DNA of 64,000 bases, taken from positions 51,973-115,972 of the forward strand of contig JAWXAT010000003.1 in the NCBI GenBank assembly GCA_034439615.1. The letters are read 5' to 3'. Positions 1,184 through 61,493 of the stretch are shown here, piece by piece; the stretch's first letter is position 1, and each line of letters starts with the position of its first letter. The translations under genes were made by a program, and so were the position numbers. This DNA comes from Oligoflexia bacterium. GTDB lineage: Bacteria; Bdellovibrionota; Bdellovibrionia; JABDDW01. The notes beneath the pieces are model-generated. The model had not been told where the DNA came from, did no database searches, and saw only the letters and a list, made by a program, of their open reading frames with translations.

Positions 1184-2203
1184 ATGCGAAACTTCATAAA
1201 AACGCTTCTTATCTTATCGGGAGTATTTCTTGTTACTTCTTGCGGCCCTCATGAAAGTTTTAGCGTTAAAAGTCTCCTTAACGAGCCCGATGCTGATACG
1301 CCACCAAGTACAGGTAATGAGGGTCTTACCTCTGCACTTAAAATTTGCTCAAAATTAAGTTTTTCAAATGTTAAGTGGCCATCTTCATTAACAGCCTCAG
1401 ATCGCGACGCATTAATGTTAGCTCTTAATCTCTCTGGCAGTTTTGAAGGCAGTGCAGGTTGGGGGAATATCACAAACAATTTTGATGGCACGGGCTTAAG
1501 CCTCGGTCTACTCAATCAAACATTGGGTACTGGCTCACTTCAGCCGCTACTTATCGAAATGCGAAATAATAATTATACAAAAATGGAAAGTGTCTTTGGG
1601 AGTAAGCGGTTTCAAAGTGTGCTTGATATGTTAGCGCTTTGGGAAAAAAATAAAATTTTAACGCTTGAAGATTTTGAAACCTCGAATCGATTCGATATTG
1701 GTTTTGATACTTTAATTAAAGCGGCATCTCGTAATTCTGATTCTATAAATTGGGCAAAGGCCAATCTGTATCAAAGTAATGGGCGCTTCATACCGGAGTG
1801 GTCAAAGGAACTCACAGCTTTGGCAAAATTACCCGAGTATATCTCGATTCAAATAAAAGCAACACTGCCCATGCATACAAGATCACTTGATTACGAAAAA
1901 CGCATTGGTGTTAGAGAGCTGCGTGCCTATCTCATGATGTTTGATGTGACAGTACAAAATGGGAGCATTCCCTCTACTGATTGGGCAGATTTTGCCACAT
2001 ATTTAAAAGCCAGCCCGAAGGCAACTGCCACTGAGCGATTAGATAAGATTCTTGAACTACGTCTTCGCCACGTGCGTACTGAGTATGTCAGTGACGTCAA
2101 AGCGCGCAAGCAGGCCATTATAAACGGTCGCGGTATAGTGCATGGCACTTCACGTAAGCTTGAAACTGAATACTGCTACTCTGGATCACTGAGTTATCGT
2201 TGA
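1184..2203 (+). CDS. Hypothetical lipoprotein, possibly chitosanase/lysozyme-like (GH46-like motif, weak)
   Basis: N-terminus MRNFIKTLLILSGVFLVTSCG carries a lipobox. The internal motif SFEGSAGWG...NFDGTG resembles the GH46 catalytic Glu / DGxG region. This is recalled from memory only. Confidence 0.5.
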   Translation: MRNFIKTLLILSGVFLVTSCGPHESFSVKSLLNEPDADTPPSTGNEGLTSALKICSKLSFSNVKWPSSLTASDRDALMLALNLSGSFEGSAGWGNITNNFDGTGLSLGLLNQTLGTGSLQPLLIEMRNNNYTKMESVFGSKRFQSVLDMLALWEKNKILTLEDFETSNRFDIGFDTLIKAASRNSDSINWAKANLYQSNGRFIPEWSKELTALAKLPEYISIQIKATLPMHTRSLDYEKRIGVRELRAYLMMFDVTVQNGSIPSTDWADFATYLKASPKATATERLDKILELRLRHVRTEYVSDVKARKQAIINGRGIVHGTSRKLETEYCYSGSLSYR

Positions 2204-2282
2204 TAATTTCTGATTGTTATGTCATTGATTGTTTCTAAATTAGATAATTTCTGATCAAAATCTTGAATTATAAGGAATTACA

Positions 2283-3959
2283 ATGGCACAGGAATTTGCG
2301 TATACAATGAAGGGTTTGGGTAAGGTATATCCCCCCAACAAACAAGTCCTTAAAGATATTTTTCTCTCATTTTATCATGGTGCCAAAATCGGTGTTCTTG
2401 GCCTTAACGGCTCAGGTAAAAGTTCGCTGCTTAAAATTATGGCCGGCATGGATAAAGAATTCGTTGGTGAAGCATTTCCTGGTAAAAACATACGCGTTGG
2501 ATTTCTTCCGCAAGAACCAAAGCTTGATGAATCAAAAACTGTAAAAGAAAATGTTCAAGAGGGTATGGGTGAAGTTGTTGCTTTGCTGCGACGCTTTGAT
2601 GAGATCAATGCTAAGTTTGCAGAAGAGATGCCTCCTGAAAAAATGGAAAAACTTTTAGAGGAGCAAGCTCGCGTTCAAGAAAAACTCGATCATCTTAATG
2701 CTTGGGAATTAGACCGCACTTTAGAGGTCGCTATGGATGCACTTCGTTGCCCCCCTGGTGAAAGTGCAGTTACAAATCTTTCTGGTGGTGAGCGTCGCCG
2801 TGTGGCTATGTGCAAATTACTACTTGAAGCTCCTGAATTATTATTACTTGATGAGCCGACAAACCATCTAGATGCTGAATCAGTATCTTGGCTTGAGAAT
2901 CATCTCAGAGATTACAAGGGTGCGGTAATCGCAGTTACCCATGATCGTTATTTTTTAGATAATATTGCAGGCTGGATCTTAGAACTTGATCGTGGAACAG
3001 GAATTCCTTGGAAGGGAAATTACTCTTCTTGGCTTGAGCAAAAACAAGCACGTTTGGCCGGAGAAGAAAAAACTGAAAGTAAGCGTCAACGTACTTTATC
3101 AAAAGAGCTTGAATGGATTCGAATGAGTCCACGTGCTCGTCAAAGTAAGAGTAAGGCTCGTATTTCTGCATATGAAAATCTATTGGCAGAAGAACAAAAA
3201 ACTAAAATGGAAGATGTAGAGATACAAATTCCACCTGGGCCACGTTTGGGTGATGTGGTTATTAAGCTTGAGAGCGTTTCCAAAGCTTACGGAGATAAAT
3301 TATTAGTTGATAATGCAAGTTTCTCAATTCCTCCAGGAGCAATTGTTGGGATCATTGGCCCCAATGGTGCTGGTAAAACAACTTTATTTCGCATGATCAC
3401 GGGTCAAGAAAAACCTGATAAAGGAAATGTCGTTGTAGGAAGTACTGTGAAGCTTGGTTATGTTGATCAATCACGCGCATCACTTGATGATAAAAAAACA
3501 ATTTATGAAGAAATCTCAGGCGGTGCTGAGCAAATATTAATTGGTAAGCGTGAACTCCCGGCGCGTCAGTATGTTTCTTGGTTTAACTTTTCAGGTACAG
3601 ATCAGCAAAAGCGAGTGGGTGTACTTTCTGGTGGTGAGCGCAATCGTGTTCATTTGGCAAAAATGCTAAAAGAGAGTGCCAACGTATTACTCCTCGACGA
3701 ACCAACAAACGACCTTGATGTAAATACTCTTCGTGCGCTTGAAGATGCGCTCTTGAATTTTTCAGGCTGCACCTTGGTAATCAGCCATGATCGCTGGTTT
3801 TTAGATCGTATTGCGACTCACATATTAGCCTTTGAAGATGAAAGTCGCGTGGTCTTTAACGAGGGTAATTATCAAGATTACGAAGAAGACTTAAAAAAGC
3901 GATTGGGAGTCGAAACCCTCACACCTCATCGAATTCGTTATAAGAAATTAAAACAGTAG
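2283..3959 (+). CDS. ettA: Energy-dependent translational throttle protein EttA (ABC-F ATPase)
   Basis: 558 aa with two ABC cassettes (Walker A GLNGSGKS / GPNGAGKT, signature LSGGERRRV / LSGGERNRV). Near-colinear with E. coli EttA/YjjK from the N-terminus MAQEF... Confidence 0.95.
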   Translation: MAQEFAYTMKGLGKVYPPNKQVLKDIFLSFYHGAKIGVLGLNGSGKSSLLKIMAGMDKEFVGEAFPGKNIRVGFLPQEPKLDESKTVKENVQEGMGEVVALLRRFDEINAKFAEEMPPEKMEKLLEEQARVQEKLDHLNAWELDRTLEVAMDALRCPPGESAVTNLSGGERRRVAMCKLLLEAPELLLLDEPTNHLDAESVSWLENHLRDYKGAVIAVTHDRYFLDNIAGWILELDRGTGIPWKGNYSSWLEQKQARLAGEEKTESKRQRTLSKELEWIRMSPRARQSKSKARISAYENLLAEEQKTKMEDVEIQIPPGPRLGDVVIKLESVSKAYGDKLLVDNASFSIPPGAIVGIIGPNGAGKTTLFRMITGQEKPDKGNVVVGSTVKLGYVDQSRASLDDKKTIYEEISGGAEQILIGKRELPARQYVSWFNFSGTDQQKRVGVLSGGERNRVHLAKMLKESANVLLLDEPTNDLDVNTLRALEDALLNFSGCTLVISHDRWFLDRIATHILAFEDESRVVFNEGNYQDYEEDLKKRLGVETLTPHRIRYKKLKQ

Positions 3960-4036
3960 GCATATTTTATATCTCGTCTTTAGTCGGTGTCAGATGATTG
4001 GCTTTAGCATTGCCTTTCATAGCCGAAAAGAAAGGT

Positions 4037-4591
4037 ATGAAGGATGCGAAGAGTTTTGCTGAAATTCTAGACTCGCTGATTAAGCCCACTGAAAGCCAAC
4101 TTGATAATTCATTGGGTTTTTCAAAATCATATACACTCAATGCTAAGACTGAGCTTCAAGCTGATTTTCTAAGTCGCCTTGTTTTTGGTAACGACCAGTT
4201 TAAAGTGACACTTGATAAATCGGTAATGCATAACGTAAAAGTTAAATATAAAACTGAAAATAAAAAAGTAAATGCACAAAAATTATTTGATTTTGTGACG
4301 CCGGTTTCAGCGCCTACTTTCAAACTCGCACCAACTTCAAATAAAGTTGAGACTCCAAAGTCACGAGTGAAACGAAAACTTACATTTGATCAATTAAATG
4401 CGCTTAAGGTTTTTTTAAAATTTGGTGAATCAAAAATAGATGAGTATTCAACAACTGAAGAAATCAAGAGTGCGTATCGCAGGCTTGCAAGAAAATATCA
4501 TCCTGATGCTCGCGTTAATGTGAGTGATATAAAATTAAATAACGCTGAAGCATTTAAGTTGATTTCTGCCGCATATAAAAAATTAATTTGA
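4037..4591 (+). CDS. J-domain (DnaJ-like) protein with a C-terminal J domain
   Basis: The C-terminus EEIKSAYRRLARKYHPDAR contains the HPD motif. Start placed at ATG 4037 because of the upstream aaagaaagg RBS; the track start 3998 is less likely. Confidence 0.6.
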   Translation: MKDAKSFAEILDSLIKPTESQLDNSLGFSKSYTLNAKTELQADFLSRLVFGNDQFKVTLDKSVMHNVKVKYKTENKKVNAQKLFDFVTPVSAPTFKLAPTSNKVETPKSRVKRKLTFDQLNALKVFLKFGESKIDEYSTTEEIKSAYRRLARKYHPDARVNVSDIKLNNAEAFKLISAAYKKLI

Positions 4592-5470
4592 TCCGATTTG
4601 AGAACCCAATTTAATAAAACTTTCACGATTTTGTTTTGATTGCTCAATAATGTCCCCGTCGGGTTTCCAACGGCCAGGTTCTCCCATGAGAATTACAGTT
4701 GATGCCCCGAAGAGAAAATATCCTTTTTCATCGCCTCGTTTGTAGGGTTGATCACTTGGATGTGTTTGAATAATTTTACCAACGGCCATGGCCCCTACTT
4801 CTATGTAGGCGAGTTTGCCGAAGTTGGTAGTTTCTAAAATACTAATGTGCCGTTCATTTGTGCAAAAAATATCACTTTTATATTTTAATGCTAAGGGATT
4901 AACAGAGTGTAAAGTTCCTTCAATGCGATAGGTCTTGTTTGTTGTACCGTCATCTGGATAATGAAAACGATGATAATCTACCGGGCATAGTCGGGCAATC
5001 AAGAGGGGGCCTCCAATAAAGGGCTCTGCAAGTTTCTCGCTGTCGAGTAATGCTTGAGCTGAAAGATGATCTCCTTTTACGGGGTATTTTTGATCAGCTA
5101 TTATTTTTTCAAAGGCTAGATATCTTGCTTCAGCAAATGCGGGCATTGAACTGCTTTTTGCAAATGGCCTTACATTGGGTTTAAAGCGTCTGATAAAAAA
5201 ATCATTAAATGTTTTAAAATGTTCATTTTCATATTCACTCATTTTAATTTTAAAATTTTGAATAAATGGTGCAATGGCTTTTTGACTTAATCTTGAGTCT
5301 TGGTAAAACCCATAAGCTTTACTTATAATTTTTCGTGTTAAAAATCTTTCAGCTATTTTTTGTCCGTATGAAGTCTCGTAGAGCCATCGAACTATTTGAT
5401 CGCCATAGACTTGCTCGGTTTCAAGTCGACCCTGCTCACGGTTCCAAAATTTTATTTCAGGTGTGTTCAT
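4583..5470 (-). CDS. psd: Phosphatidylserine decarboxylase proenzyme
   Basis: PVDYHRFHYP motif and the FGASTV self-cleavage (GST) motif near the C-terminus. Size 295 aa is typical. Confidence 0.85.
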   Translation of the reverse strand: MNTPEIKFWNREQGRLETEQVYGDQIVRWLYETSYGQKIAERFLTRKIISKAYGFYQDSRLSQKAIAPFIQNFKIKMSEYENEHFKTFNDFFIRRFKPNVRPFAKSSSMPAFAEARYLAFEKIIADQKYPVKGDHLSAQALLDSEKLAEPFIGGPLLIARLCPVDYHRFHYPDDGTTNKTYRIEGTLHSVNPLALKYKSDIFCTNERHISILETTNFGKLAYIEVGAMAVGKIIQTHPSDQPYKRGDEKGYFLFGASTVILMGEPGRWKPDGDIIEQSKQNRESFIKLGSQIGSN

Positions 5471-7578
5471 TGTGCTCGACCCGTTTTGATGCGTTTAGGA
5501 ATATAGTAACTTCTTTTGTCAGCAAGACTGCGCGCAACTAAAAGTGCTTCTGCATGAGCCCAACCTAGGGGGCAAACGCTGACCCCCGTTTGTTCACACA
5601 TTACTCCTGTGGCTGGATTAATACTTTCTACCAAAACATTAACATGTGGCATGGGATCTTCGCCTCGCATGATAGCGGCAAGGGCTCGCTCGCCAGAAAG
5701 TAGGGGCCAGGCTTTGCCAACTTGATTTGTACCGTAAGCATCATGATTATATCTTAAATAACCGAGGCCTCCGGGAGCTTGTGCACGCGCCATTCGATCA
5801 TAAATAGTTAATGAAGAGGTAAAGCGCGGGTCTTGACCTGCGATCAAACCAGAAATGATCCATTGAAGAAAGCCGCCATCTATAATTTCATTTTCTTCAT
5901 AAACTTGTCCGCCGTTTGCAATTTGAAGTGGTGTTGCGTGATTGTGATTATCAGGGTGACCAATATGAATGCGTTCAAAATAATTTCGCCCAAGATTTCC
6001 ATTTGCAACAAGTGTCCATTGAAAAACATTATCGCGCCATTTATTTGCAGTGTTCATATAAATTTGTGCGCGACTTGGATCCCTTTCTTTTTCAAGCCAA
6101 GCAGCTTCATAAAGACCTTGAGTAGCAATTGCTATAGAATTTGGACTCAATCCAGCAACTTCTTCCCAGCGATCTTGACCTGTATAGGGGCCAAATTTCA
6201 CCAGTGCATCTGCAGCGCGAACGACCATTGAGCGAAACTCATCGTAGTTAATGGCTCGCTCTTCTAAAAGCTTACCCACTAAAATAATCGGAAACCCAGT
6301 TTGATCTATTTGGAAAATGCGCCAACTTGGATCGCCATTTACCCAAGTGTTTTGCCAAAATGTTCCATCTGATTTTTGAGTTTTTACAAAATAACGAGCG
6401 ATATTTGTAGCTGTTATGTAATCTCCAGCAGCCATAAGACCTAAAGCCATTTGTGCAAGATCCCGCGGCCATACACGGTGATAACCGCCATTGGCATCTC
6501 CAGTGCGAAGTCTTGCTGATTCATAATCATGTTCTGAGAGTTCGATTTGATCTGGAAGCGAAGGCTTTGCAGGCCCAGCAACAATTGCGCCGAGAAAAAA
6601 TTTATCTTCCATACCTTTGATCATAAGTACGTGAGGTTCAAGCTTTTGACCGATTGAATTAAGTTTTGCCAAGTACGCTGACCATTCTTGTTGTTGGAGG
6701 GCGAGTAATTGACTAACGGGTGTGTTGAAATTTTTATGAGTGAGTTGTCTTAAGACTTCAGTGGGGTTTAGCCCAGCTTGTTCTGCTGTAAAACTTAATG
6801 CGAGTGTTAACTGAACTTGAGATGTGTTTGGAGTAAACCCGAGTGCACCTGAGACATTTCCATTGCGAGCACTCTGATACTTATATGGAAGTGCATGATA
6901 CTGATTTAGTTGATTCCATGGGGCATTCACGCCTTCAAAGCCAACGGCGCCATCTTCAGCGGGGCGATTCATTTTTAAAATTTGAACGGTACGACGTGCA
7001 AATACGGCGGGCTCATCACCACGACGATCAGATTGATAGCTGAGAATTTCACCAGGCTCTTGAGCATTGGCTATGATGGCAACAGCATCTCCACCAGCGG
7101 TGTTGTCAGTAGCTGGATTATGTAAAACATAAATGCGGGGTGGTTGAGGCGTATTGATCGAAAGTTGATAATTCACGATAACTGTTGGTTGAGTTGGATC
7201 AAGTAAAATATCTTTTTCAATACGAATGTTGGCTCTGCGGCTCACCGAACTAACGTGATAAGCCAGGGAATGTGGATATCGAGTAACGGTATGAACGAAA
7301 TCTTTACGCTCTTCTAAAATAGTATTATCGACGATAAAAATAAGTTGAGTGTCACGTGTTTGGGCGCGATCAAGTGAGGGGTAATAAACCTCTGATAAAA
7401 TACCTTCAGCGATTGTGGCGGTTACAGGTTGTTTAAGTGTTGCGAGAAATCCTTGTTTATCAGGGCGCCCCCAAACGCCCATCATGCCAGGGCCATTGGG
7501 TGCTTCATTAAAATTTGGTGTCGCACCAATTGTGAATATGCATAGAAGTAATATGGTAGAGAAAATACTTCTTTTCAT
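5467..7578 (-). CDS. Secreted glycoside hydrolase family 15-like protein (glucoamylase / glucodextranase / trehalase-like)
   Basis: Signal peptide MKRSIFSTILLLCIFTIGA. Contains HRVWPRD and the general-acid motif GQDRWEEVAG (DxWEE) typical of GH15 (alpha/alpha)6 barrels. Confidence 0.6.
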   Translation of the reverse strand: MKRSIFSTILLLCIFTIGATPNFNEAPNGPGMMGVWGRPDKQGFLATLKQPVTATIAEGILSEVYYPSLDRAQTRDTQLIFIVDNTILEERKDFVHTVTRYPHSLAYHVSSVSRRANIRIEKDILLDPTQPTVIVNYQLSINTPQPPRIYVLHNPATDNTAGGDAVAIIANAQEPGEILSYQSDRRGDEPAVFARRTVQILKMNRPAEDGAVGFEGVNAPWNQLNQYHALPYKYQSARNGNVSGALGFTPNTSQVQLTLALSFTAEQAGLNPTEVLRQLTHKNFNTPVSQLLALQQQEWSAYLAKLNSIGQKLEPHVLMIKGMEDKFFLGAIVAGPAKPSLPDQIELSEHDYESARLRTGDANGGYHRVWPRDLAQMALGLMAAGDYITATNIARYFVKTQKSDGTFWQNTWVNGDPSWRIFQIDQTGFPIILVGKLLEERAINYDEFRSMVVRAADALVKFGPYTGQDRWEEVAGLSPNSIAIATQGLYEAAWLEKERDPSRAQIYMNTANKWRDNVFQWTLVANGNLGRNYFERIHIGHPDNHNHATPLQIANGGQVYEENEIIDGGFLQWIISGLIAGQDPRFTSSLTIYDRMARAQAPGGLGYLRYNHDAYGTNQVGKAWPLLSGERALAAIMRGEDPMPHVNVLVESINPATGVMCEQTGVSVCPLGWAHAEALLVARSLADKRSYYIPKRIKTGRAQ

Positions 7579-25577: not shown

Positions 25578-25937
25578 AATTCTCAAAAGTAGAGTGGATG
25601 ATCGCTGCTTCAGGCTTTTATAGATGAAGGAGAGGAAAGTCCGGACTCCGTTGGATAGTGCAAAGGGTAACGCCCTTCCGCCGTGAGGCGAGGAACAGTG
25701 GAACAGAGAGAATGTCCAGGGCATTGAGCCGGAACACGGGAACGGGAGTTTTCGGGGAGCCGCTGGAGTGAAAACAGCCAAACTCTGCACGGAGCAAGAT
25801 CAAATAGGGAAGCAATAGTAGGGTGTATCCGCCCGTAGCTTCCGGGTAAGATCGCTTGAGCCTTGAGAGTAATCTCAGGCCTAGAGGAATGATCATCCTC
25901 GACAGGATCCGGCTTACAGCTTTACTTGTGAGAATTA
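25578..25937 (+). ncRNA. rnpB: RNase P RNA (bacterial type A)
   Basis: The conserved GGAAAGTCCGGACTCC (P4 5' strand) and ACAGAGAGAATG.. / ..GGATCCGGCTTA (P4 3') motifs are present. P1 pairs aattctcaaaagtagag (5') with ctttacttgtgagaatt (3'). A terminator follows. Two ORF-track ORFs on the minus strand overlap it and are spurious. Confidence 0.85.
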
Positions 25938-49438: not shown

Positions 49439-50131
49439 ATGAATGCGCAATACAACTTTATTTTGGTGAGCCGAAAGACGGGCGATGCTTTCAAAATTCG
49501 CGATGAAATAGAGCGTAATCGACTTTACTCTGTTGAAATGATCGAAACCGCACCGGCTGCTTTGGGTCGTCTCGCAAAAGGGGACATCAGCTGTATGGTT
49601 TTTAATTTTGATAGTTTTAATCAACAAAAAATCAGCGTCATCACTAATCTTCGCGATATGGGTTATACATTTCCCGTCATCATTTTTGCCGCATTCGTTC
49701 AAAAAGAAGCCTATGATATTGTGAAAAAAATGGATCGCGTTATTATTATCGAATGCCCTTTTGAAGCCAAAGATGTTTGGGGAATATGTCAAAAAATAGT
49801 TCAAGGTGCAAAAGTTAATCAGCGTATTTTTCGTCGATTCTATACAAATCAAAAAGCGGTACTTGAAAAAACAATCAGCGGTGAAATCATCGCGGGCGCA
49901 ATTTATAATCTCAGCCATGGTGGAGCCTATATGGAGTTGCACTCAGGACGCGTGAGACGCGGTGAGATTCTCAAGGTTACAATTCAATTAAATAAAATTT
50001 CAAAAGCTTATAATGTCGACGCGCAAGTTGTCTGGACTACTCCACAGGGTTTTTGGCTGGGAAAGCCTGCTATTGGCTTAAAATTCATGAAGGCAGGCGA
50101 TGTCTACAGAAATTTACTCGACAAGCTGTAA
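49439..50131 (+). CDS. PilZ-domain protein with a degenerate N-terminal receiver-like domain (paralog 1 of 3)
   Basis: PilZ motifs QRIFRRF (RxxxR) and YNLSHGGAY (NxSxGG). The N-terminal ~120 aa have CheY-like alternation but lack the acidic pocket (LVSRKTGD, CPF in place of KPF). Confidence 0.75.
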   Translation: MNAQYNFILVSRKTGDAFKIRDEIERNRLYSVEMIETAPAALGRLAKGDISCMVFNFDSFNQQKISVITNLRDMGYTFPVIIFAAFVQKEAYDIVKKMDRVIIIECPFEAKDVWGICQKIVQGAKVNQRIFRRFYTNQKAVLEKTISGEIIAGAIYNLSHGGAYMELHSGRVRRGEILKVTIQLNKISKAYNVDAQVVWTTPQGFWLGKPAIGLKFMKAGDVYRNLLDKL

Positions 50132-50170
50132 CAGAGTTTAAAGTTCGAATCGTTTTGATTGGGGATATAA

Positions 50171-50866
50171 ATGTCAGATAAATCAAAATATACATTTCTT
50201 CTGTTCAGACAAGAATCAGAAGGCTGTGACCAAATTGTTGCAGAGATTGGTGCAAATCCACTATGTCAAATAATTCAAGTCGATACGATTCGTGAAATTT
50301 TTGATCATGCGGCGGATGGTAGTGCGAATTCATTAATTTTTAATTTAAAAATTTTTGACTCCAATACACTTAAGGTTATTCAAAAAATAAAATCAATCAC
50401 ACCAACACTTTCTACAACAATCGTTACAGCGCAGAAAATTCAAAATATCGACATGCAAAAATTAAAGAAATACAATGAGATTGTCATTATAGATAAGCCT
50501 GTAAAGCATGGTGATTTTGCATTGCTGACGGAGAGACTTGCAGAAGGCAAGCCAATATACTTTCGCGAACATAAACGATTTAATACGATTCAAATAGCCC
50601 ATCTTGAGAAACTGACCTCTAATGAACAATATGAAGGTAGTGTTTATACTATTAGTAAGGGCGGCGCCTATATTGAACTTACCAAGGGTAATGTCAAACC
50701 AGGAGAGCTCTTTCGCGTCTCTATTAAATTAGATCAATTATCAAAAGCGCATAATTTTAATGCTGAAGTGATTTGGACTGCACCAAAAGTGCGGCAAGGG
50801 CTGGCAGTTGGCCTGAAATTTATTAATGAAGAGCAAGTCTATAGAACTTTGCTTGAGAAGGTATAA
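50171..50866 (+). CDS. PilZ-domain protein with a degenerate N-terminal receiver-like domain (paralog 2 of 3)
   Basis: REHKRF (RxxxR) and YTISKGGAY (xxSxGG). C-terminal GLKFINEEQVYRTLLEKV is shared with the other paralogs. Confidence 0.75.
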   Translation: MSDKSKYTFLLFRQESEGCDQIVAEIGANPLCQIIQVDTIREIFDHAADGSANSLIFNLKIFDSNTLKVIQKIKSITPTLSTTIVTAQKIQNIDMQKLKKYNEIVIIDKPVKHGDFALLTERLAEGKPIYFREHKRFNTIQIAHLEKLTSNEQYEGSVYTISKGGAYIELTKGNVKPGELFRVSIKLDQLSKAHNFNAEVIWTAPKVRQGLAVGLKFINEEQVYRTLLEKV

Positions 50867-50869
50867 AAT

Positions 50870-51571
50870 ATGAGTAAGAGCGGACGTCAACAGTATTTAC
50901 TAATTAGTCATGTCGAAGAAATCGGTTCCGAAATAGAAAGTGCGCTGACAACTGGTCGTGCATTCACTTTGCATCGTGTGGCGAGTCTCAGTGAGGCGCT
51001 TCAAAAACTATCAGATGGTGAAATTAAATGTGTTATTTTTAGTATTCCTGTTTTTCATCAGAAAAGTGTCAAATTTATATCTAAACTTCGTGATATTTAT
51101 CGAGAGATGCCAATTATTATCGTATCAGGAAAAATTCAGAGAGAGGCGTTTGATAGCGCAACTGAAATTAAGCGTGTTGTTATTTTAGAGCAATCATTCG
51201 TAAAAACTGAACTTCTGGCAATATGCGAAAAAGTAGCAAAAGGCCACGAAATCTATCAGCGTAAAACCAAACGATTCTCAACTGACCAGATGGTTGATTT
51301 AGAGCGGATGCTCACTGGCGAAGTAATGAAGGGTTTTTTATTTAATCTTAGCCAAGGTGGTGCATTCATTAACATCGAGAGAGGTGTTATAGTGCCCGGG
51401 GATATTCTAAAAATGAATGTTAAACTCGATAAGTTGGATAAATCACATCTTGTTTTTGCAAAAGTAATATGGGTGTTACAACAAGGTTTTGGATTAAATA
51501 AACCAGGTGCAGGTTTGAAATTCATGAAGGCTGAAGAGGTTTATAGTAGTCTTTTAGATACCGTTAAATAG
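50870..51571 (+). CDS. PilZ-domain protein with a degenerate N-terminal receiver-like domain (paralog 3 of 3)
   Basis: RKTKRF (RxxxR) and FNLSQGGAF (NxSxGG). C-terminal GLKFMKAEEVY. Only 3 nt separate it from paralog 2. Confidence 0.75.
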   Translation: MSKSGRQQYLLISHVEEIGSEIESALTTGRAFTLHRVASLSEALQKLSDGEIKCVIFSIPVFHQKSVKFISKLRDIYREMPIIIVSGKIQREAFDSATEIKRVVILEQSFVKTELLAICEKVAKGHEIYQRKTKRFSTDQMVDLERMLTGEVMKGFLFNLSQGGAFINIERGVIVPGDILKMNVKLDKLDKSHLVFAKVIWVLQQGFGLNKPGAGLKFMKAEEVYSSLLDTVK

Positions 51572-52508
51572 ACGGTTCGTGTTGCTTGAGGCTTAGTTCC
51601 TCAATTTGAATAGTGACGTGTTCAATATTAAATCGCTTTTTAAGCATTTCTCTAATTTCACATAAAAGTTCATGTCTTGATTCACCAACAGCAACAACGT
51701 GTACGCTGAGACTCACCATTCCGGATGTAATACTCCAAACATGCAGGTCATGTACCTCTGTGATGCGCGGAATTTTACTTATAGCATCTTGAATTTCATC
51801 GCTATCGAGATGCAGTGGTGTGCCTTCAAGAATTACGTGTGCGGTATCTAAAATAAGTCTAAAAGATGATGCGATAATAATAAGTGCAATGATAACACTC
51901 ACAATGGGATCAGCTTTAGTCCAGCCATAAAAATATATTAATAGACCTGCGATCATTGCTCCTAGTGAACCTAGGGCGTCAGCTAAAACATGAAACAAGG
52001 CGCCACGCATATTGGGATGTGCGTGATTTCCGTGAGTTAAAAGCCATGCACCAACAAGATTAAAAATAAGGCCGCCTGTTGAAATCCAAAACATTTCCAC
52101 TGATTTGATTTCTACAGGATTATTAAAACGATCCCAAGCTCCCCACATAATCACACATGAGAGGAGCACTAAAAAAATACCATTGATGAAAGCTGCTAGT
52201 ATCTCTAGGCGTAAAAAACCATAAGTACGATGAGCCGTGGCTGGTTTAGAACTCATCATGAAAGCAAAGAGACTTAAACTTAAAGCCGCTGTATCAGTGA
52301 GCATGTGAACAGCATCTGAAATAAGGGCTAATGAATTTGTGTAAAACCCCCCAAATGCCTCGGCTATCATGAATAAGAAGGTGAGGGCTATGACCCACTT
52401 TAGTTGCCGTATGTTTTTTGAGTTATCTAAGCCATGAGAGTGACTCCCATGCATATGGGGGTGTTGATGATCGTGATGATGTTCATGGTCATGATGCGTA
52501 GTGCCCAT
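51564..52508 (-). CDS. Cation diffusion facilitator family transporter (CzcD/ZitB-like) with a His-rich N-terminus
   Basis: MGTTHHDHEHHHDHQHPHMHGSHSHG is a His-rich metal-binding tail. Six TM helices. HxxxD motifs (HMLTD, HVLAD). Confidence 0.85.
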   Translation of the reverse strand: MGTTHHDHEHHHDHQHPHMHGSHSHGLDNSKNIRQLKWVIALTFLFMIAEAFGGFYTNSLALISDAVHMLTDTAALSLSLFAFMMSSKPATAHRTYGFLRLEILAAFINGIFLVLLSCVIMWGAWDRFNNPVEIKSVEMFWISTGGLIFNLVGAWLLTHGNHAHPNMRGALFHVLADALGSLGAMIAGLLIYFYGWTKADPIVSVIIALIIIASSFRLILDTAHVILEGTPLHLDSDEIQDAISKIPRITEVHDLHVWSITSGMVSLSVHVVAVGESRHELLCEIREMLKKRFNIEHVTIQIEELSLKQHEPSI

Positions 52509-54295: not shown

Positions 54296-57200
54296 TTATT
54301 TTAAAGTAGCTGCTGGCAGGCCATTTGTGAGTAGTAACACACAACCATCACCTATTTGCTTAACTCCTGGTACAGAAACAAGGGGAGTTGTCACAGTCGC
54401 GATTGTATCAACGGCAGCTTTTGCAAAGGTAATATCACCCGCGAAGGGTCTGAGCATAAGTCGTGAAAAAGCACGTGTTTTAATTTCAGGTAGAGTTTCA
54501 GTTGCGGGGACGCCAATTGTAAGCATGTTTTGAAGTAATTGGCCTGTGACATTTTCCCAAGTTCTGTATGCAAGATTGTATTTAAATCTGTCTTTGCCAA
54601 TTCTTCGGTTAAAGTATTCTTGAACCGTTGGATGTGCTCTGAGCTCTTCTTTGATGTCTTTGAGTCTGTAGCCAGCTGCTAATTCAAAGGCTTGTTCAGT
54701 TTGAAATTGTAATCCACCTAGTGGAAGCCCGAAGCTTGTTGAATAGCTAGTAATATAACTATCAATGTCAAATCGCTTAAGTAAACCCAAGCTTATAGTT
54801 AAGTGTGTGGTAAAAGCTGCGGGCATATTGGCCCAAATCAATTTGTTGTAATAACTCCAAGCCTTTAAAAGCGTATTATCAGGATTTTTAACTAGCTGAT
54901 GTTTGTACCATTCAAAATAAGTCATCTCGCGTTCATGCCTATCTTGATTAAAAATAATTCTACCTTGTTGGTCATGGATTTTTTTAGGCTTTACAGAAAT
55001 GGTGAGTTCTTCTTTTGTAGGGACTTTTCCGAATTGACCTTCATGCATTTCATCTTGTTGAATTTTAAGCCAAACATCCGAGAGCACACCAGAAATTACT
55101 GCATAAGTGTAACCACTAAAAAATACCATTCGAGACAAATAGTACCACGAGGTGGGGCTGTGAATGGAGTCTTGGATAGGTCTTAAAATGGGATCCGTAA
55201 CCCCTGCCAACAAAAGGAAAGTGAAAAAAAGTTCTTGGGGCTTATCTACAATGTTACCCGCAATCATAGACCGTACTGCGCGCGCCATGGCTTGGGGGTT
55301 ATTAATTTGTCGTTCAACAACTTGCATTCTTGCTACTTGGCGATTATTTAAAGGGTTAAGTTGTCGATTCAAAAAATCGGGATCAACTCTGTGTACGTAT
55401 TTACGAAAAAGATTCGTGGCTGAGAGTTTGGTTTCATTTTCAGTTCTGATTTTAGCTTCTGTAAGTAGCTCTGGAGTTATAACTTGCTCGACATATCTCT
55501 GAGCTACTGATGCATCTAGTTGCAATTCGTTTTTGTAAGGTAATGTAATATTTTTGAGTGTCTCTAAGTTTAGATTTGCATTTTGGGGCACAACTCCATG
55601 TTTTGAAACTAAATCTTGAAGATAGAGTTCAGATGCTCGCTCTACAACAAGATTGAAATGGTTTTCAAAAAATATTTTATTTTGCTCGGTAAATTTATTG
55701 ATTTTTTTATCATAGATATTAGCAATGCCTTCTTTTTTGAAGAAATCATGAAGATCGTTACTTGTATTCATGTGGTTGACGAGGGCTTGGAAAGATTTTT
55801 TAAATGCATGTTCGTAAAGGACCTTCTCGACATTGATAAATTGAGTTTCCCAGGCATCTACTTGGTGGCGATAATCTGCTTCATAAATATCTTCAAAACG
55901 ATTTTTCATCCCACCATTAATTTTGTTGGGTATTACTCCGCGAGTAGCTCTGGCGTAAAGCTTGGGATAAATTATCATGCCAATGAGGGCTTTAGGCTTC
56001 CAAATAAATGAACGTAACGCAAACCAATTATTCCAAATGCGCGTGTAGGTGCGCCCGGAGTTTGTAAATGAGCAATAGCTATAAGTAAAATGTTTAATCG
56101 CTTGAAAAAGAGTGCTGATCTGTCGATCTGATTTTTGGTCAAGTTGTTGAGTGCTTGGAGTTTTGCCAATAGCTTTTAGCATGCGATAATAAAATCCGCC
56201 CTCTCGCTGAGCTTGTTCTAATTCACGTACTTGTTCTTCTGCTTCTGCGTTTTGTTCAGCAGTGAATTCGAGTTCTTTGTCTTTTCCACTTTGTTTTGCA
56301 TGTGAGGTTGCCAGAGCTTCTAGATATGTTTTTTCTTGGGAATTTTGTCTTTTTATAAAAGCTGTTTTAAGAGCACCTAACCAACTTACTTCTGTGTTTT
56401 TGAATTGTGAGATTCCAATTTTGCGTAAGTCTTTAAAAAGAAGATACGAGTTTACAATCAAATGAGGAATTCCCAAGGTCATATAAAGTGTAGTGATAAT
56501 GGCGCCAAGGCCGATACCAAATCTGCTGATTTTGTCAGGTGCCAAATAAGCATTGTAGAAATTTGAAGGGTTAAGGCCAGCAAAAGTTTCCATGAAGGCT
56601 GTCGATGTAAGTCTTGATCCATCTATGGCCCAATTCATGATTGATCGTGTGAGATCTGTTGATAGATAAAAAAGATGAGCCATTTGTTCAGGAAACACAA
56701 TGCCCATGGCAGTGCCTGTGACGATGGCTCCTGCGATTTGAACATTGGGATGATTTGCAATTCTCAGTATACCTTCATTCAACGCCGCTGTTCGGCTAGC
56801 TTTGCTGTGGGGGCTAAATGCAGAAGCTATGAGTGCTAAGCCTTGAATAATTTTAGGCGCGCCATTGGGCTGAGGCAAAGTCATGCGTGCCCAAAATTGA
56901 TGAAGTTTTGAAAGTAGCCTTTTTTCTGCTTCGATATTTGCGCTGATATTTTTTGCAGTTTTTTCGATAAAGTCTTGGTGCATGAGTTTATCGGAATCAA
57001 CAGCGTTAGACTGATCTTTCTTTAGACCCTTAAGACCCTTAGCAAATTCTAAAAGCTTTGCTTCTGAACCGGCAATGTCTTGCATTTGTTGTTGAAAATC
57101 TTTGCCTTTAAGTTCTACAGCGCGCATGAGGTATTCTTGTAAGCCATCACCAAGTGGTTGCATTTGTGTTAATGCTTTTGGATCAAGCATATTGACATTG

Positions 57201-57946
57201 ATGTTGTAGGCAGATTGTTGGATGAGTGACATCTCATTAAGATGTTCTTTGCCAATTACAACTTGATTAATATGAAGTTGGTTATTCTTTATATCGAGAT
57301 TATTTAATCGATTTCCAAACTGAACGGGAATTTTAAAAACCGGTGGGTTCACTCTGCCAAGAATTGGATCATACGATTTAAGATCAATAAATGAAATCGA
57401 TTGCACACCAGAGGGCGTGAGATTGTGTTTTTCTACAAAAACTAGGTAATCACCAAAAACTGCAAAACCAATGACGGGCATACGAAAGTCATAGAGTAGT
57501 TTTCCTTGATAATGAATTTGCAGTTTTGATTCATTCGAACTTAAGAAGGTAGGTTTAAATCTTTTTGAATGTGCTGAGAGAACTTTTTGAGTGTTTGTTG
57601 AATCGAAAGCGGCATATGTAAGTGCTGAGTAATCGATAAAATGAGCTTTTGGGTTCTCGTGTGAAATAATGTCGAGCAATCTCCAACGATCAAGGGGGCT
57701 ATTGATCGCAAACCCGTCAAGTGTTTGGCGAAGATGATCAACTTCAGCTTTTTGCTCAGTACGTAAATTAAAACCGGGTACTAAGAGTGTCGGGGTTGTA
57801 TTGGTGACACCACTGGTAGCGATCACTTGTAAAACTTCAATTCCAGGCTCTAAGATATTATCTTGTGCGCTTGCCGGGCTTAACAACAACGGGTTAAGGG
57901 TGAGTGATAAGCAAATCGCAATGTGAATGAACTTTGCTAACGCCAA
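54296..57946 (-). CDS. Large (1216 aa) hypothetical secreted/membrane protein
   Basis: Signal peptide MALAKFIHIAICLSLTLNPLLLSPASA. Several internal hydrophobic segments. No recognisable domain. Confidence 0.6.
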   Translation of the reverse strand: MALAKFIHIAICLSLTLNPLLLSPASAQDNILEPGIEVLQVIATSGVTNTTPTLLVPGFNLRTEQKAEVDHLRQTLDGFAINSPLDRWRLLDIISHENPKAHFIDYSALTYAAFDSTNTQKVLSAHSKRFKPTFLSSNESKLQIHYQGKLLYDFRMPVIGFAVFGDYLVFVEKHNLTPSGVQSISFIDLKSYDPILGRVNPPVFKIPVQFGNRLNNLDIKNNQLHINQVVIGKEHLNEMSLIQQSAYNINVNMLDPKALTQMQPLGDGLQEYLMRAVELKGKDFQQQMQDIAGSEAKLLEFAKGLKGLKKDQSNAVDSDKLMHQDFIEKTAKNISANIEAEKRLLSKLHQFWARMTLPQPNGAPKIIQGLALIASAFSPHSKASRTAALNEGILRIANHPNVQIAGAIVTGTAMGIVFPEQMAHLFYLSTDLTRSIMNWAIDGSRLTSTAFMETFAGLNPSNFYNAYLAPDKISRFGIGLGAIITTLYMTLGIPHLIVNSYLLFKDLRKIGISQFKNTEVSWLGALKTAFIKRQNSQEKTYLEALATSHAKQSGKDKELEFTAEQNAEAEEQVRELEQAQREGGFYYRMLKAIGKTPSTQQLDQKSDRQISTLFQAIKHFTYSYCSFTNSGRTYTRIWNNWFALRSFIWKPKALIGMIIYPKLYARATRGVIPNKINGGMKNRFEDIYEADYRHQVDAWETQFINVEKVLYEHAFKKSFQALVNHMNTSNDLHDFFKKEGIANIYDKKINKFTEQNKIFFENHFNLVVERASELYLQDLVSKHGVVPQNANLNLETLKNITLPYKNELQLDASVAQRYVEQVITPELLTEAKIRTENETKLSATNLFRKYVHRVDPDFLNRQLNPLNNRQVARMQVVERQINNPQAMARAVRSMIAGNIVDKPQELFFTFLLLAGVTDPILRPIQDSIHSPTSWYYLSRMVFFSGYTYAVISGVLSDVWLKIQQDEMHEGQFGKVPTKEELTISVKPKKIHDQQGRIIFNQDRHEREMTYFEWYKHQLVKNPDNTLLKAWSYYNKLIWANMPAAFTTHLTISLGLLKRFDIDSYITSYSTSFGLPLGGLQFQTEQAFELAAGYRLKDIKEELRAHPTVQEYFNRRIGKDRFKYNLAYRTWENVTGQLLQNMLTIGVPATETLPEIKTRAFSRLMLRPFAGDITFAKAAVDTIATVTTPLVSVPGVKQIGDGCVLLLTNGLPAATLK

Positions 57947-58178
57947 AATTTTCTCCAGTTTCGAATTACATTTTCAATGCAATGCCAATGCCGTCTGGGG
58001 TGACTTGTGATAAAGGTTTTAGTTGGTATGTGTGCCGAACTAATCGTCTGAGGCGTCGTTTTGAGGCTCTAATTCGTAATATAGACCAAAAGTTTTACAC
58101 CTAAATCAGTGCCATCTAACTGAAATATCAGGAAGATTTTGGCCCGGGGTTTGCTCTTACTAATAGTACGAGCAAAGG

Positions 58179-61100
58179 ATGTTAAAAATGAAAAACAAAC
58201 TCTCAAGCCTTATGACTTTTTTTTCGTGGATTATAATTTTTCAACTAGCCCTTGGCAGCACACTCGTCGATGTAGCTAAAGCACAAGAAGCCACGCAAGT
58301 GCTGACACAAAGCATAGTTACTAATCAAGATGCTCGAATGGCTATTGCTGATGCAGTTGTTGACCCTGCGATTTCAGCTATTGCAGCTGATACAACTTTT
58401 CCTCGAGAGTTAGATCTTAGCTCAAATGATCCTATCGTTGATCAAGATCCATTTTTTCAAAATGCTCAAAGTTGGGGGCAAATCACGGGCCAAGTATCTG
58501 GTGAATTAGCATTTTCAAATGATGGCCAAGTCTCACAAATCAAACTTCCGTTTCAAAATAAAGTTTGGAAACTAAAAGCACCGATTCACCCGATTTTTGC
58601 AACCAGTGATTATGTTTTCTTCGCAGCTAATGCGGGGAGCGATATTTTCTCGGCCTCTTCAAATGACGGTGCTGATTTTGGCGAGGGAATATTCTATGTT
58701 CCGTATAACGAACTCTTAGCTTCAAGTGCACAAGAAGAAAAAATTCCTGTTTACTTTTTTCCTATGCCTGGCACGGGTTGGCAAGCCACAGCAAAAGCGG
58801 ATGTTTTAGTAACTGAAATTCCTCAGCACGATATTGTTGTATTCACAGATACCCAAGGCGCTCCCTTGCCTGTGAAAGTTGAGGATCTTAAATCTATAGC
58901 TAAAGTTGAATCTGTAAACTTTATGATGGCTCAAAGCATGGCTATGCAAGCGGCTATTGATAAACTTAAGGCTAATAAGAGCCAAATTGAATCTGTGCGA
59001 CAAAACTTTATTAATAATCTACAAACACTTAGTAAAGCCGCTCTAAAAGAAGATGAAAAATCATTTTCACGAGCACACGAATCTATCGCGAATAGTTTTG
59101 GACAGGTTTTAACTTCAATGAAATCTGTTTTAGGAACAACGAAGCTCACTTTGCCTCGCGGGAGTACCGCGGGATTCGGGATGCTCTTCACGGGATTTGA
59201 TTTAGACAAATCAAATCAAAGCACTATCTTTGCAAACTATCAGCAAACCAAATTAGAAAAATGGCGAACTGCTTTTCTTCAGGTTTTAGGTATTAACACT
59301 GCTCATGCAGATGCCGAACTCACAAGAGTTCTTATTGGCGTTAGTATTGTACTCGCAAAATGCGCATTTATTTTTTCTGTTGGTACAGCTCTGCGATATA
59401 CGGTTTTAAGACAAAAAATTAAAGAGCGAATGGGTGTTAGCGGTATTGGGAAAAATGGGTTTCAAGTAAACCTCACTGTTTTTGCACAATCACTAACGTT
59501 TGTTGCGCAATTTCCCTATGTGACATCTACCAATACTATTGAGTACATTATGGATCGCGCCGGAACTGCTGAAAACGGCCGCATCAGAAAACTCTTTAAC
59601 GCAACATTTGGTTACTCGCGAAAAATCAATAATAAAACTCCAGTCAATCATAAGACGCTGATTTACGGTGTTGGTATTCTTGGCTTTGTTGACACAGCCC
59701 TTGTTGCCTTTCAGCAGTACATGGTCATTCCGTGGATTGTTTCTGGTCTTGTTGTGATTTTTCCTGGTCTTGCAAGTCGCGCTGAAGCTGCCTGGGGAAT
59801 GGGCGGCAATATGGCTTTATATAATCTCATAGCAGTCATCGGTAATCTTACGGCTTACATTTCTTCAGGTGCTTATGCCTATGCCAATCAAGTTCAAGAA
59901 ATTTCAACAAATGATGCATTAAGAATTGTCGCTGATGAAATGCGTAAAGAAGGTGTGAATCCCGATGATCCAATAAACAAAAGACTCTTTGATACGCGTG
60001 TGAAAAAAATGGTTCGCGCATCACTCAATAGTAAGGGTTTGCCAGATGAAAGAGCTTTTCTCTTTGATGCCAATTCTTTTTATCAAAGTATTCAAGGCTT
60101 TTTTGGCTATAAGCCAACAGATAAATCAAATCCTGAGGAATATTATGCAGTTTTAAGACAAGGGCTAGTCTTAAGAGCCCTAAATAATGCAATTGTTGTT
60201 GCACAAGATACAAAAAATGAACGTGCACTTGTTGTTTTAAAAGGAGCCAAAGAAGATTTTAGTCTTGTTGAGAAATTTAAATCTGATCCATCAGCATTTT
60301 TGACTCCCACAAAAATTAAAGAAGTGGCTGAGCGTTATCGTAATGTACGACAAGAGCTTACTTCCTTTACTTTTACAGGTGGCCCATCTGATCGAATAAC
60401 AAAGCTCGGTAATTGGCGTAATAAAGGGTCAAATGCAGGAGTGCGGTCAGCGGCACAGATTTATCGAAAAGAATTTTTTAGTTTAATGGAAATAAAAGAA
60501 GTTGCTGTGTCTGTCGGTACTCAAACTGCTCAAGATATAAGCCCCGAAGCATTAGACCCGTCACTCAGAGAAGGTCGGTTTGCACGTTGGCAATTAAAAA
60601 GAGCTATTACAAAAGCTAATGAAAAATTTGTCGCTCAGTTTAAAGTAGATCCCATTGAACTTTTTGGTGAGTCTGGTGATGCAGCTCAAGCAAATTTACG
60701 CACGCAATGGGAAAAACTCTATCGCAGTGAATTGGTAAGTTTAGTTGGTTTGCGTCCTGACTCAACTGAAACACAGTTAATGGCAGATGTTGAGGCTGAA
60801 ACTGAGAGTTTATTTAAAGTGCGACTTGAGTCAAATGCCTCACTTAAAACATATTTGGCTACACTATCTGCTTATGAACGCGCACGGGTAACAGAAATTT
60901 ATAGAACAGATGTTTTTGTTCAAAAATATGTCGATGCCACTATTAAAACCGAAAAAGTTCCACCGCACTCACCTGCACAACCGGGTATATTTCAAGGTTT
61001 GAGACAAACACAACTAGTAAGGCAAAATAAGGTTCTGACATCGGGGTTGCGGTTTATGGAGGGATTGTTTTCAGACACGCGCTATCAGCGGGGTTTAAAA

Positions 61101-61493
61101 AACCTACTCTTTCGTACAATTCCACTAGTAGAAGATATGGTTGCCGGAAATCTTCGTGAAATCAGAAGAACGCCCGTAGAAGGTACGTTTGGATATCTTT
61201 ATAATAGGGTTATTTGGGCAGCAGTTCTTCCCTATAAACAGTGGGGAGTTCAGAGATTGTTTCGTGGTTCGACTATTTCTGGTCCATGGGCCACTACAAA
61301 TCGTATTCTCACAAAAATAGGGTTTAAGCCTGGTGAGAATGCAAAAGGAATGTTGTCTTACGGAGTTATCGGAAGCTTTGCCACGTTTACTGGGGGTATA
61401 TTCTTTGGACTTTTCAGTGAAGATATCTTGCGGGGTGTGACAAAGGCGATTGATTCTTGCTCTGCGGTACTATCGAAGATAATCCCTTTTTAA
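58179..61493 (+). CDS. Large (1104 aa) hypothetical secreted/membrane protein
   Basis: Signal peptide MLKMKNKLSSLMTFFSWIIIFQLALG. Internal and C-terminal hydrophobic segments. Divergent from the 1216-aa gene. No recognisable domain. Confidence 0.6.
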   Translation: MLKMKNKLSSLMTFFSWIIIFQLALGSTLVDVAKAQEATQVLTQSIVTNQDARMAIADAVVDPAISAIAADTTFPRELDLSSNDPIVDQDPFFQNAQSWGQITGQVSGELAFSNDGQVSQIKLPFQNKVWKLKAPIHPIFATSDYVFFAANAGSDIFSASSNDGADFGEGIFYVPYNELLASSAQEEKIPVYFFPMPGTGWQATAKADVLVTEIPQHDIVVFTDTQGAPLPVKVEDLKSIAKVESVNFMMAQSMAMQAAIDKLKANKSQIESVRQNFINNLQTLSKAALKEDEKSFSRAHESIANSFGQVLTSMKSVLGTTKLTLPRGSTAGFGMLFTGFDLDKSNQSTIFANYQQTKLEKWRTAFLQVLGINTAHADAELTRVLIGVSIVLAKCAFIFSVGTALRYTVLRQKIKERMGVSGIGKNGFQVNLTVFAQSLTFVAQFPYVTSTNTIEYIMDRAGTAENGRIRKLFNATFGYSRKINNKTPVNHKTLIYGVGILGFVDTALVAFQQYMVIPWIVSGLVVIFPGLASRAEAAWGMGGNMALYNLIAVIGNLTAYISSGAYAYANQVQEISTNDALRIVADEMRKEGVNPDDPINKRLFDTRVKKMVRASLNSKGLPDERAFLFDANSFYQSIQGFFGYKPTDKSNPEEYYAVLRQGLVLRALNNAIVVAQDTKNERALVVLKGAKEDFSLVEKFKSDPSAFLTPTKIKEVAERYRNVRQELTSFTFTGGPSDRITKLGNWRNKGSNAGVRSAAQIYRKEFFSLMEIKEVAVSVGTQTAQDISPEALDPSLREGRFARWQLKRAITKANEKFVAQFKVDPIELFGESGDAAQANLRTQWEKLYRSELVSLVGLRPDSTETQLMADVEAETESLFKVRLESNASLKTYLATLSAYERARVTEIYRTDVFVQKYVDATIKTEKVPPHSPAQPGIFQGLRQTQLVRQNKVLTSGLRFMEGLFSDTRYQRGLKNLLFRTIPLVEDMVAGNLREIRRTPVEGTFGYLYNRVIWAAVLPYKQWGVQRLFRGSTISGPWATTNRILTKIGFKPGENAKGMLSYGVIGSFATFTGGIFFGLFSEDILRGVTKAIDSCSAVLSKIIPF

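Follow-up and report, generated by a model that had tools for sequence, protein, structure and literature searches.

We analysed two giant, divergently transcribed genes, here called A and B, in a 64,000-nucleotide stretch of the Oligoflexia bacterium contig JAWXAT010000003.1 (the whole stretch is referred to as the window, and gene coordinates are window positions unless another locus is named). Gene A (54296-57946, reverse strand) encodes 1216 amino acids (aa) from a TTG start with a GGAGA box 6 nt upstream, and gene B (58179-61493, forward strand) encodes 1104 aa when read as a mechanical open reading frame (ORF) from the ATG at 58179; an initial annotation of the same DNA had given both ORFs with exactly these coordinates, strands, and lengths. 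A second ATG of B lies nine bases past the first, at 58188, with an AAGGA box upstream, and because the Shine-Dalgarno spacing is better there and the NCBI copy of the protein (P0004, identical, annotated as "hypothetical protein SGI74_00875 [Oligoflexia bacterium]") is 1101 aa long, B likely starts at 58188. Both are real genes rather than chance ORFs, since each has full-length homologues on other contigs at 21-39% identity, and they belong to two uncharacterised families of Bdellovibrionota, a large one for A and a small one for B.

The extent of the two families was estimated in several ways. Word-indexed searches returned two homologues per protein (three proteins per family) with 27-35% identity over the full length, and under-reported family A: an exhaustive HMMER search of 1.84 billion representative sequences with an A profile recovered 248 representatives with E ≤ 1e-3, of which 198 had E ≤ 1e-30, and the matches nearly always ran from end to end of proteins of 1100-1600 aa. 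Family B comprises about ten members, found by the word-indexed search together with scans of genomic and metagenomic contigs for sequence patterns. The closest homologues of A and B are only about 34-39% identical. When 30 A-family clusters were looked up, seven carried a source name, in every case "hypothetical protein", and five named an organism (Bdellovibrionales, Oligoflexia, or "Deltaproteobacteria" metagenome-assembled genomes, MAGs); among members carrying names, family A was seen only in Bdellovibrionota. The two genome-derived B loci come from Bdellovibrionales and Bdellovibrionota MAGs. One A-family member, P0026 (2385 aa, from the Deltaproteobacteria MAG MBI2027927.1), bears an additional helical C-terminal extension of 1078 aa that matches neither the A nor the B family and no Pfam model, and that stems either from a fusion or from an overlooked stop codon. 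The contig of another A homologue (P0003, locus L002) also encodes a 1444-aa protein (2132-6466 of that locus) whose sole Pfam hit is PF26745 (SPM), along with several further large ORFs that lack domains, and the Bdellovibrionota lineage appears to be rich in giant unannotated proteins.

Gene neighbourhoods were compared across 16 loci, six of them A-type (L001, L002, L013-L016) and ten B-type (L003-L012, four of which are short or partial). All six-frame ORFs of these loci were searched with the hidden Markov models (HMMs) of both families, and exactly one family was found per locus: none of the six A-type loci held a B gene and none of the ten B-type loci an A gene, in a comparison whose nearest homologue is ~35-39% identical and which includes no closely related genome. 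No neighbour of A or B recurred in the 16 loci either; the adjacent genes were unrelated housekeeping genes that differed in every locus, and a conserved neighbourhood for either gene was rejected. The pairing of A and B is not conserved, the best-supported reading being that they are adjacent here by chance, and the membrane-associated complex of the two that the initial annotation had envisaged finds no support in these loci. A CDF transporter gene lies within ~2 kb of an A-type gene both in the window (51564-52508) and in L015 (8366-9337); the other four A loci lack it, so this probably reflects residual synteny or chance.

The spacer between the divergent genes (57947-58178, 232 bp) agrees in extent with the divergent promoter region of about 230 bp that had been described, but the promoter itself was not borne out: sigma-70-like matches numbered 17, against 18.4 in shuffled sequences, and are not enriched, a scan of the region for terminators and promoters stayed at the shuffled expectation, and no promoter can be assigned. 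At its B-proximal end lies a near-perfect palindrome (58150-58176) with 13-nt arms and a 1-nt spacer, TTTGCTCTTACTA A TAGTACGAGCAAA, which ends 2 nt 5' of the first ATG of B and adjoins the AAGGA box of the 58188 start. As an RNA hairpin its stability is not above that of shuffled sequences (z -1.1); it could be an operator.

We also compared the two proteins with each other. Their overall layout is similar, as had been noted before, both families having in common a signal peptide, an acidic, putatively periplasmic beta domain, long helices, a probable transmembrane (TM) anchor, a basic helical domain of ~400 aa, and C-terminal hydrophobic helices. At the level of sequence, the earlier suggestion that A and B are distant paralogs is weakly supported for the N-terminal beta domain and unsupported elsewhere. 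BLASTP of A against B was non-significant (E 0.22), the HMM of each family had no match among the sequences of the other, and full-length hhalign comparisons, made with three-sequence profiles and then with 132 against 9 sequences, gave a probability of 1-2%. The top hhalign match nonetheless fell each time on one co-linear stretch, pairing A 141-253 with B 118-254, and restricting the comparison to the N-terminal third yielded a score of 32.0 (P=7.6e-4, probability 25%). None of 150 column-shuffled alignments reached this score (12.2±2.3, maximum 21.4), and a reversed control scored 21.2. Across this alignment the secondary structure of the two independent models, that of B having a mean predicted local distance difference test score (pLDDT) of 34.8, agreed at 68% of positions compared to 33-56% at shifted registers, and the strands and the helix that follows them line up. 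In the rest of the proteins (TM region, central domain, and C-terminus) profile comparison stayed at the null level. An N-terminal module shared by A and B, possibly ancient, is plausible from these sequence and model comparisons; paralogy is at most partial, and the common architecture leaves paralogy of the whole proteins possible.

Protein A could be divided into parts with the help of an AlphaFold2 model of residues 28-1216, built from a 71-sequence alignment (mean pLDDT 83.2, predicted template-modelling score (pTM) 0.80, 617 residues at pLDDT ≥90). Residues 1-27 (57866-57946, reverse strand, as is all of A) read as a Sec signal peptide, with K5, a hydrophobic core, and an A-S-A|Q cleavage site in the context SPASA|QDN. 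After a low-confidence linker, the model places a 12-strand beta domain at residues 93-232 (57251-57670), which carries an invariant D188 in an FIDL motif as well as a conserved LPVF motif, and which is the only region of A with similarity to B. In the model this domain resembles a propeller fragment; a beta-propeller is defined by a closed ring of 4-10 four-stranded blades, and the A domain shows 12 strands. Four long helices at residues 233-355 (56882-57250) follow as a coiled-coil-like stalk, modelled in part at low confidence, that terminates at a conserved L-x-x-P-x-P motif (LTLPQPNGAPK). The most hydrophobic segment, residues 473-498 (56453-56530), is a likely stop-transfer TM anchor with a conserved G-x-P-H...N pattern; its Kyte-Doolittle (KD) hydropathy is 1.69 in A and 1.75 as the family mean, the family median of the summed Hessa-scale insertion free energy (dG) is 2.2, and its flanks are net negative before and net positive after.

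The remainder of A is modelled as an all-helical body in which the hydrophobic stretches sit within helices of 30-41 residues. Residues 499-900 (55247-56452) would form a basic all-helical domain on the cytoplasmic side, with helices mostly above pLDDT 85 and conserved residues R645, P661, N677-G-G, E700, and E707. Residues 901-1083 (54698-55246) are the most conserved block of the protein by conservation profile and family consensus, and contain four hydrophobic helices of 25-30 aa (901-925, 937-960, 1032-1057, and 1058-1083) with small-xxx-small motifs; near-invariant residues of the C-terminal part of A are K961, Q963, N1024, D1060, and E1088. The C-terminal helical domain, residues 1084-1216 (54299-54697), is likewise placed in the cytoplasm by its charge, and is marked by the motifs EQAFELA and HP..Q.Y and by a conserved C1202.

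Protein B follows a comparable order on the forward strand. Its Sec signal peptide (residues 1-35, 58179-58283, KD 1.76) has an A-K-A|Q site in the context DVAKA|QEA, and a D-P-x-V-D-Q-D-P-F-F motif (residues ~84-93) lies just upstream of an acidic beta domain at residues 99-232 (58473-58874), recognised from the family consensus, model secondary structure, and charge, which contains the family motif VPVYFFPLPG. Past the helical stalk, a P-R-G-S-T-A-G-F-G motif at residues 326-334 (59154-59180) is conserved in the family alignment. The strongest TM segment (residues 381-404, 59319-59390; KD 2.28, Hessa-sum dG 1.2) precedes a strongly basic loop, and is followed by a predicted hydrophobic helical hairpin (491-535, 59649-59783), a basic helical domain, probably cytoplasmic by charge (571-1000, 59889-61178), and C-terminal hydrophobic helices (1001-1080, 61179-61418). 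The beta domains, of ~140 aa in each protein, contradict the initial description of A and B as helical throughout outside their TM segments.

Both N-termini carry the features of a Sec type I signal peptide as read from the sequence, namely a basic n-region (K/R), a hydrophobic h-region, an A-x-A site, and no lipobox Cys. The export signals that had been proposed were thereby recovered with A-x-A|Q sites in both proteins, and by a crude test a signal-peptide-like N-terminus is present in 110 of the 139 A-family members with an initial M. Hydrophobic segments occur, as had also been reported, both mid-protein and towards the C-terminus, at residues 401-420 (weak), 473-498, 901-925, 937-960, and 1032-1083 in A and at 381-404, 491-535, 546-570, and 1058-1080 in B.

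Charge patterns were counted in 132 A and 8 B members. In A, net charge is mostly negative ahead of residue 473 (28-355 included). It is positive at 499-560 in 79% of members, at 561-900 in 91%, and at 961-1031 and 1084-1216 in 74-77%; no member has a positive charge in the 11-residue loop (926-936) that joins two of the hydrophobic helices. B has the same polarity, with an acidic N-terminal part and a loop (405-490) that is net positive in 8/8 members. The distribution in family A follows the textbook positive-inside pattern and strongly fits a polytopic inner-membrane protein. From the signal peptides, the hydrophobic segments, the charge patterns, and the conserved C-terminal block, we infer for A and B an N-out, C-in polytopic topology in the inner membrane, and their standing as uncharacterised secreted or membrane proteins, already proposed from the first reading, was upheld.

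Searches for known relatives returned little. Neither protein matched a family in Pfam or NCBIfam above curated cutoffs; in Pfam searches of 36 diverse A members and of five unusually long ones, no family was matched by more than one member. A search with PADLOC for anti-phage defence found nothing, PHROGs gave only matches at E ≥ 0.0046 to families of unknown function, and PDB sequences searched against both family profiles yielded noise only. The A model had no Foldseek match at E ≤ 1e-3 either among 350,542 PDB chains or in BFVD, its best matches being vinculin and MukB at E of about 0.04 with a TM-score <0.1, and literature searches located no description of either family. The earlier statement that no motif could be assigned to these proteins is thus confirmed across Pfam, NCBIfam, PADLOC, PHROGs, PDB, and BFVD, and the ~7 kb that had been singled out as lacking recognisable domains is indeed unannotated sequence space. 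By absence of matches in the libraries searched, the A and B families would be new in kind, which stops short of demonstrating a new mechanism.

We favour the reading that A and B are two independent giant envelope proteins restricted to Bdellovibrionota/Oligoflexia, located in the inner membrane, scaffold- or transducer-like, and neighbours by chance; our estimate of its probability is about 40%. Under this reading, a cleavable Sec signal peptide would export each protein, which would be anchored in the inner membrane with its N-terminus outside and its C-terminus inside. Some 350-450 residues would be periplasmic, placing the acidic, propeller-fragment-like beta domain on a long-helix stalk; a stop-transfer helix (A 473-498, B 381-404) would then lead into the basic all-helical domain of ~400 residues in the cytoplasm, and a small cluster of C-terminal hydrophobic helices would dip back through the membrane. 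A would have five TM helices in all and expose its short acidic loop (926-936) on the outside of the membrane. Each protein would probably act as a homo-oligomer. The periplasmic head may bind an envelope component or a partner, and a signal or force may pass through the conserved charged C-terminal membrane bundle to the cytoplasmic helical domain, so that the role would be that of a trans-envelope scaffold or transducer rather than of an enzyme or a classical transporter; this coupling function is speculative.

Several observations weigh against this interpretation. Most of the hydrophobic segments are marginal: the summed Hessa central-position dG is >3 for every segment of A itself, family medians range from 2.2 to 6.9, and by this simple sum one segment per protein approaches spontaneous insertion. 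As their hydrophobicity is marginal, membrane integration is insecure for all but one helix in each protein. The model of B, built from a three-sequence alignment, is unusable as a fold at its pLDDT of 34.8, its secondary-structure string being informative. Finally, no partner, regulator, or domain of A or B hints directly at an activity.

A bolder version, in which A and B would be two founding branches of an undescribed, Bdellovibrionota-specific superfamily of trans-envelope machines, strikes us as unlikely. It would entail a new fold, in which oligomerisation would complete a periplasmic partial-propeller head and the other parts would be a coiled-coil stalk, a charged bundle in the membrane, and a large cytoplasmic helical domain. 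The role in the envelope would be lineage-specific, for instance in prey contact or invasion, or in envelope remodelling. We would also give fairly long odds against A and B being a novel kind of oligomeric channel, transporter, or membrane-interface enzyme. Conserved charged residues at the membrane boundary (H495, K961, Q963, D1060, and E1088 of A) would then form a conduction path or an active site, and gating would fall to the large soluble domains, as in CorA or MscK; no such family emerged by sequence (36 members) or by structure, there are only about five marginal TM helices, and no ATPase or substrate-binding genes recur nearby.

Somewhat less probable again is the idea that A and B are secreted alpha-helical effectors, analogous to pore-forming toxins or translocators, that insert conditionally into prey membranes, the beta head binding a receptor and the marginally hydrophobic helices staying buried until a trigger arrives. 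Sec signal peptides, the marginal hydrophobicity of most of the "TM" segments, the presence of predators in the Bdellovibrionota lineage, and stand-alone genes in variable contexts that diverge fast (closest homologues 34-39% identical) would all suit such effectors, but the family-wide positive-inside pattern and the always-acidic 11-residue loop fit a static polytopic topology, and conservation peaks in the hydrophobic C-terminal block. No likeness to pore-forming toxins or secretion-system translocators emerged in sequence or in PDB structures, nor did any linkage to a secretion system, with no secretion-system genes nearby.

Least likely of all, and in our view very improbable, is a hetero-oligomeric membrane complex of A and B as distant paralogs co-regulated from their shared spacer: divergent adjacency across 232 bp, the identical overall architecture, the weak, register-consistent similarity of the N-terminal beta domains, and a 12-strand partial-propeller-like head that a partner might in principle complete speak for it, but the two families never met in the 16 loci (0/6 and 0/10), their profiles are at the null level outside the N-terminal domain, promoter signal in the spacer does not exceed the shuffled expectation, and the families are of unequal size (248 representatives for A, about 10 members for B).

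The region around A and B is ordinary chromosome. Other genes in the window include dnaG-rpoD, an RNase P RNA, tRNAs, citrate synthase, acyl-CoA carboxylase subunits, the CDF transporter, an AIRS-family protein, enoyl-CoA hydratase, and a PolX-PHP polymerase. The RNase P RNA is of bacterial class A (25586-25932, 214 bits) and lies downstream of dnaG-rpoD and a tRNA-Met, which confirms the window as part of the core chromosome. About 3 kb from gene A, at 49439-51571, three tandem same-strand paralogues of 230, 231, and 233 aa, all with PilZ as their C-terminal domain, make up a small set of cyclic di-GMP-binding proteins; the third also has a weak match to a receiver domain. This PilZ array was not seen beside A or B homologues in the other loci.

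Many unannotated proteins underlie the biology of Bdellovibrionota, including predation and envelope remodelling. Family A, at ~1200 aa, modelled with a pTM of 0.80 and lacking structural neighbours among solved and viral proteins, is a tractable target for the definition of a new family or fold and for functional work in culturable relatives. As the reading of the divergent pair as a complex lacks comparative-genomic backing, A and B should be studied separately.

Among known systems, the closest to A and B can be grouped by the part of the architecture they recall. Beta-propeller proteins, such as NirF, cytochrome cd1 nitrite reductase, WD40 proteins, and BamB, are among them. Vinculin/alpha-catenin and the SMC-type coiled coils are likewise large all-helical bundles or long coiled coils, but the Foldseek E values of 0.04-0.2 and TM-score <0.1 amount to no real similarity. 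The likeness to CorA and MscK/MscS is architectural: these oligomeric channels combine large soluble domains with a small number of TM helices, MscK having in addition a signal peptide and a long N-terminal region in the periplasm, and A and B share with them a large soluble helical domain and a small C-terminal TM cluster with conserved charged residues. Unlike these channels, A and B have no CorA or MS_channel Pfam match and no structural match, and the number and order of their TM helices differ. Scaffolds of the TolA and FimV/HubP type, which are bitopic and span the envelope, are also alike in architecture, combining an exported domain, a membrane anchor, and a long helical region in a stand-alone gene. 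A and B differ from these scaffolds in having no LysM, TolA, or TPR domains, and A differs further in its additional conserved C-terminal hydrophobic helices and in a helical body that is modelled at high confidence as folded, rather than as extended low-complexity sequence.

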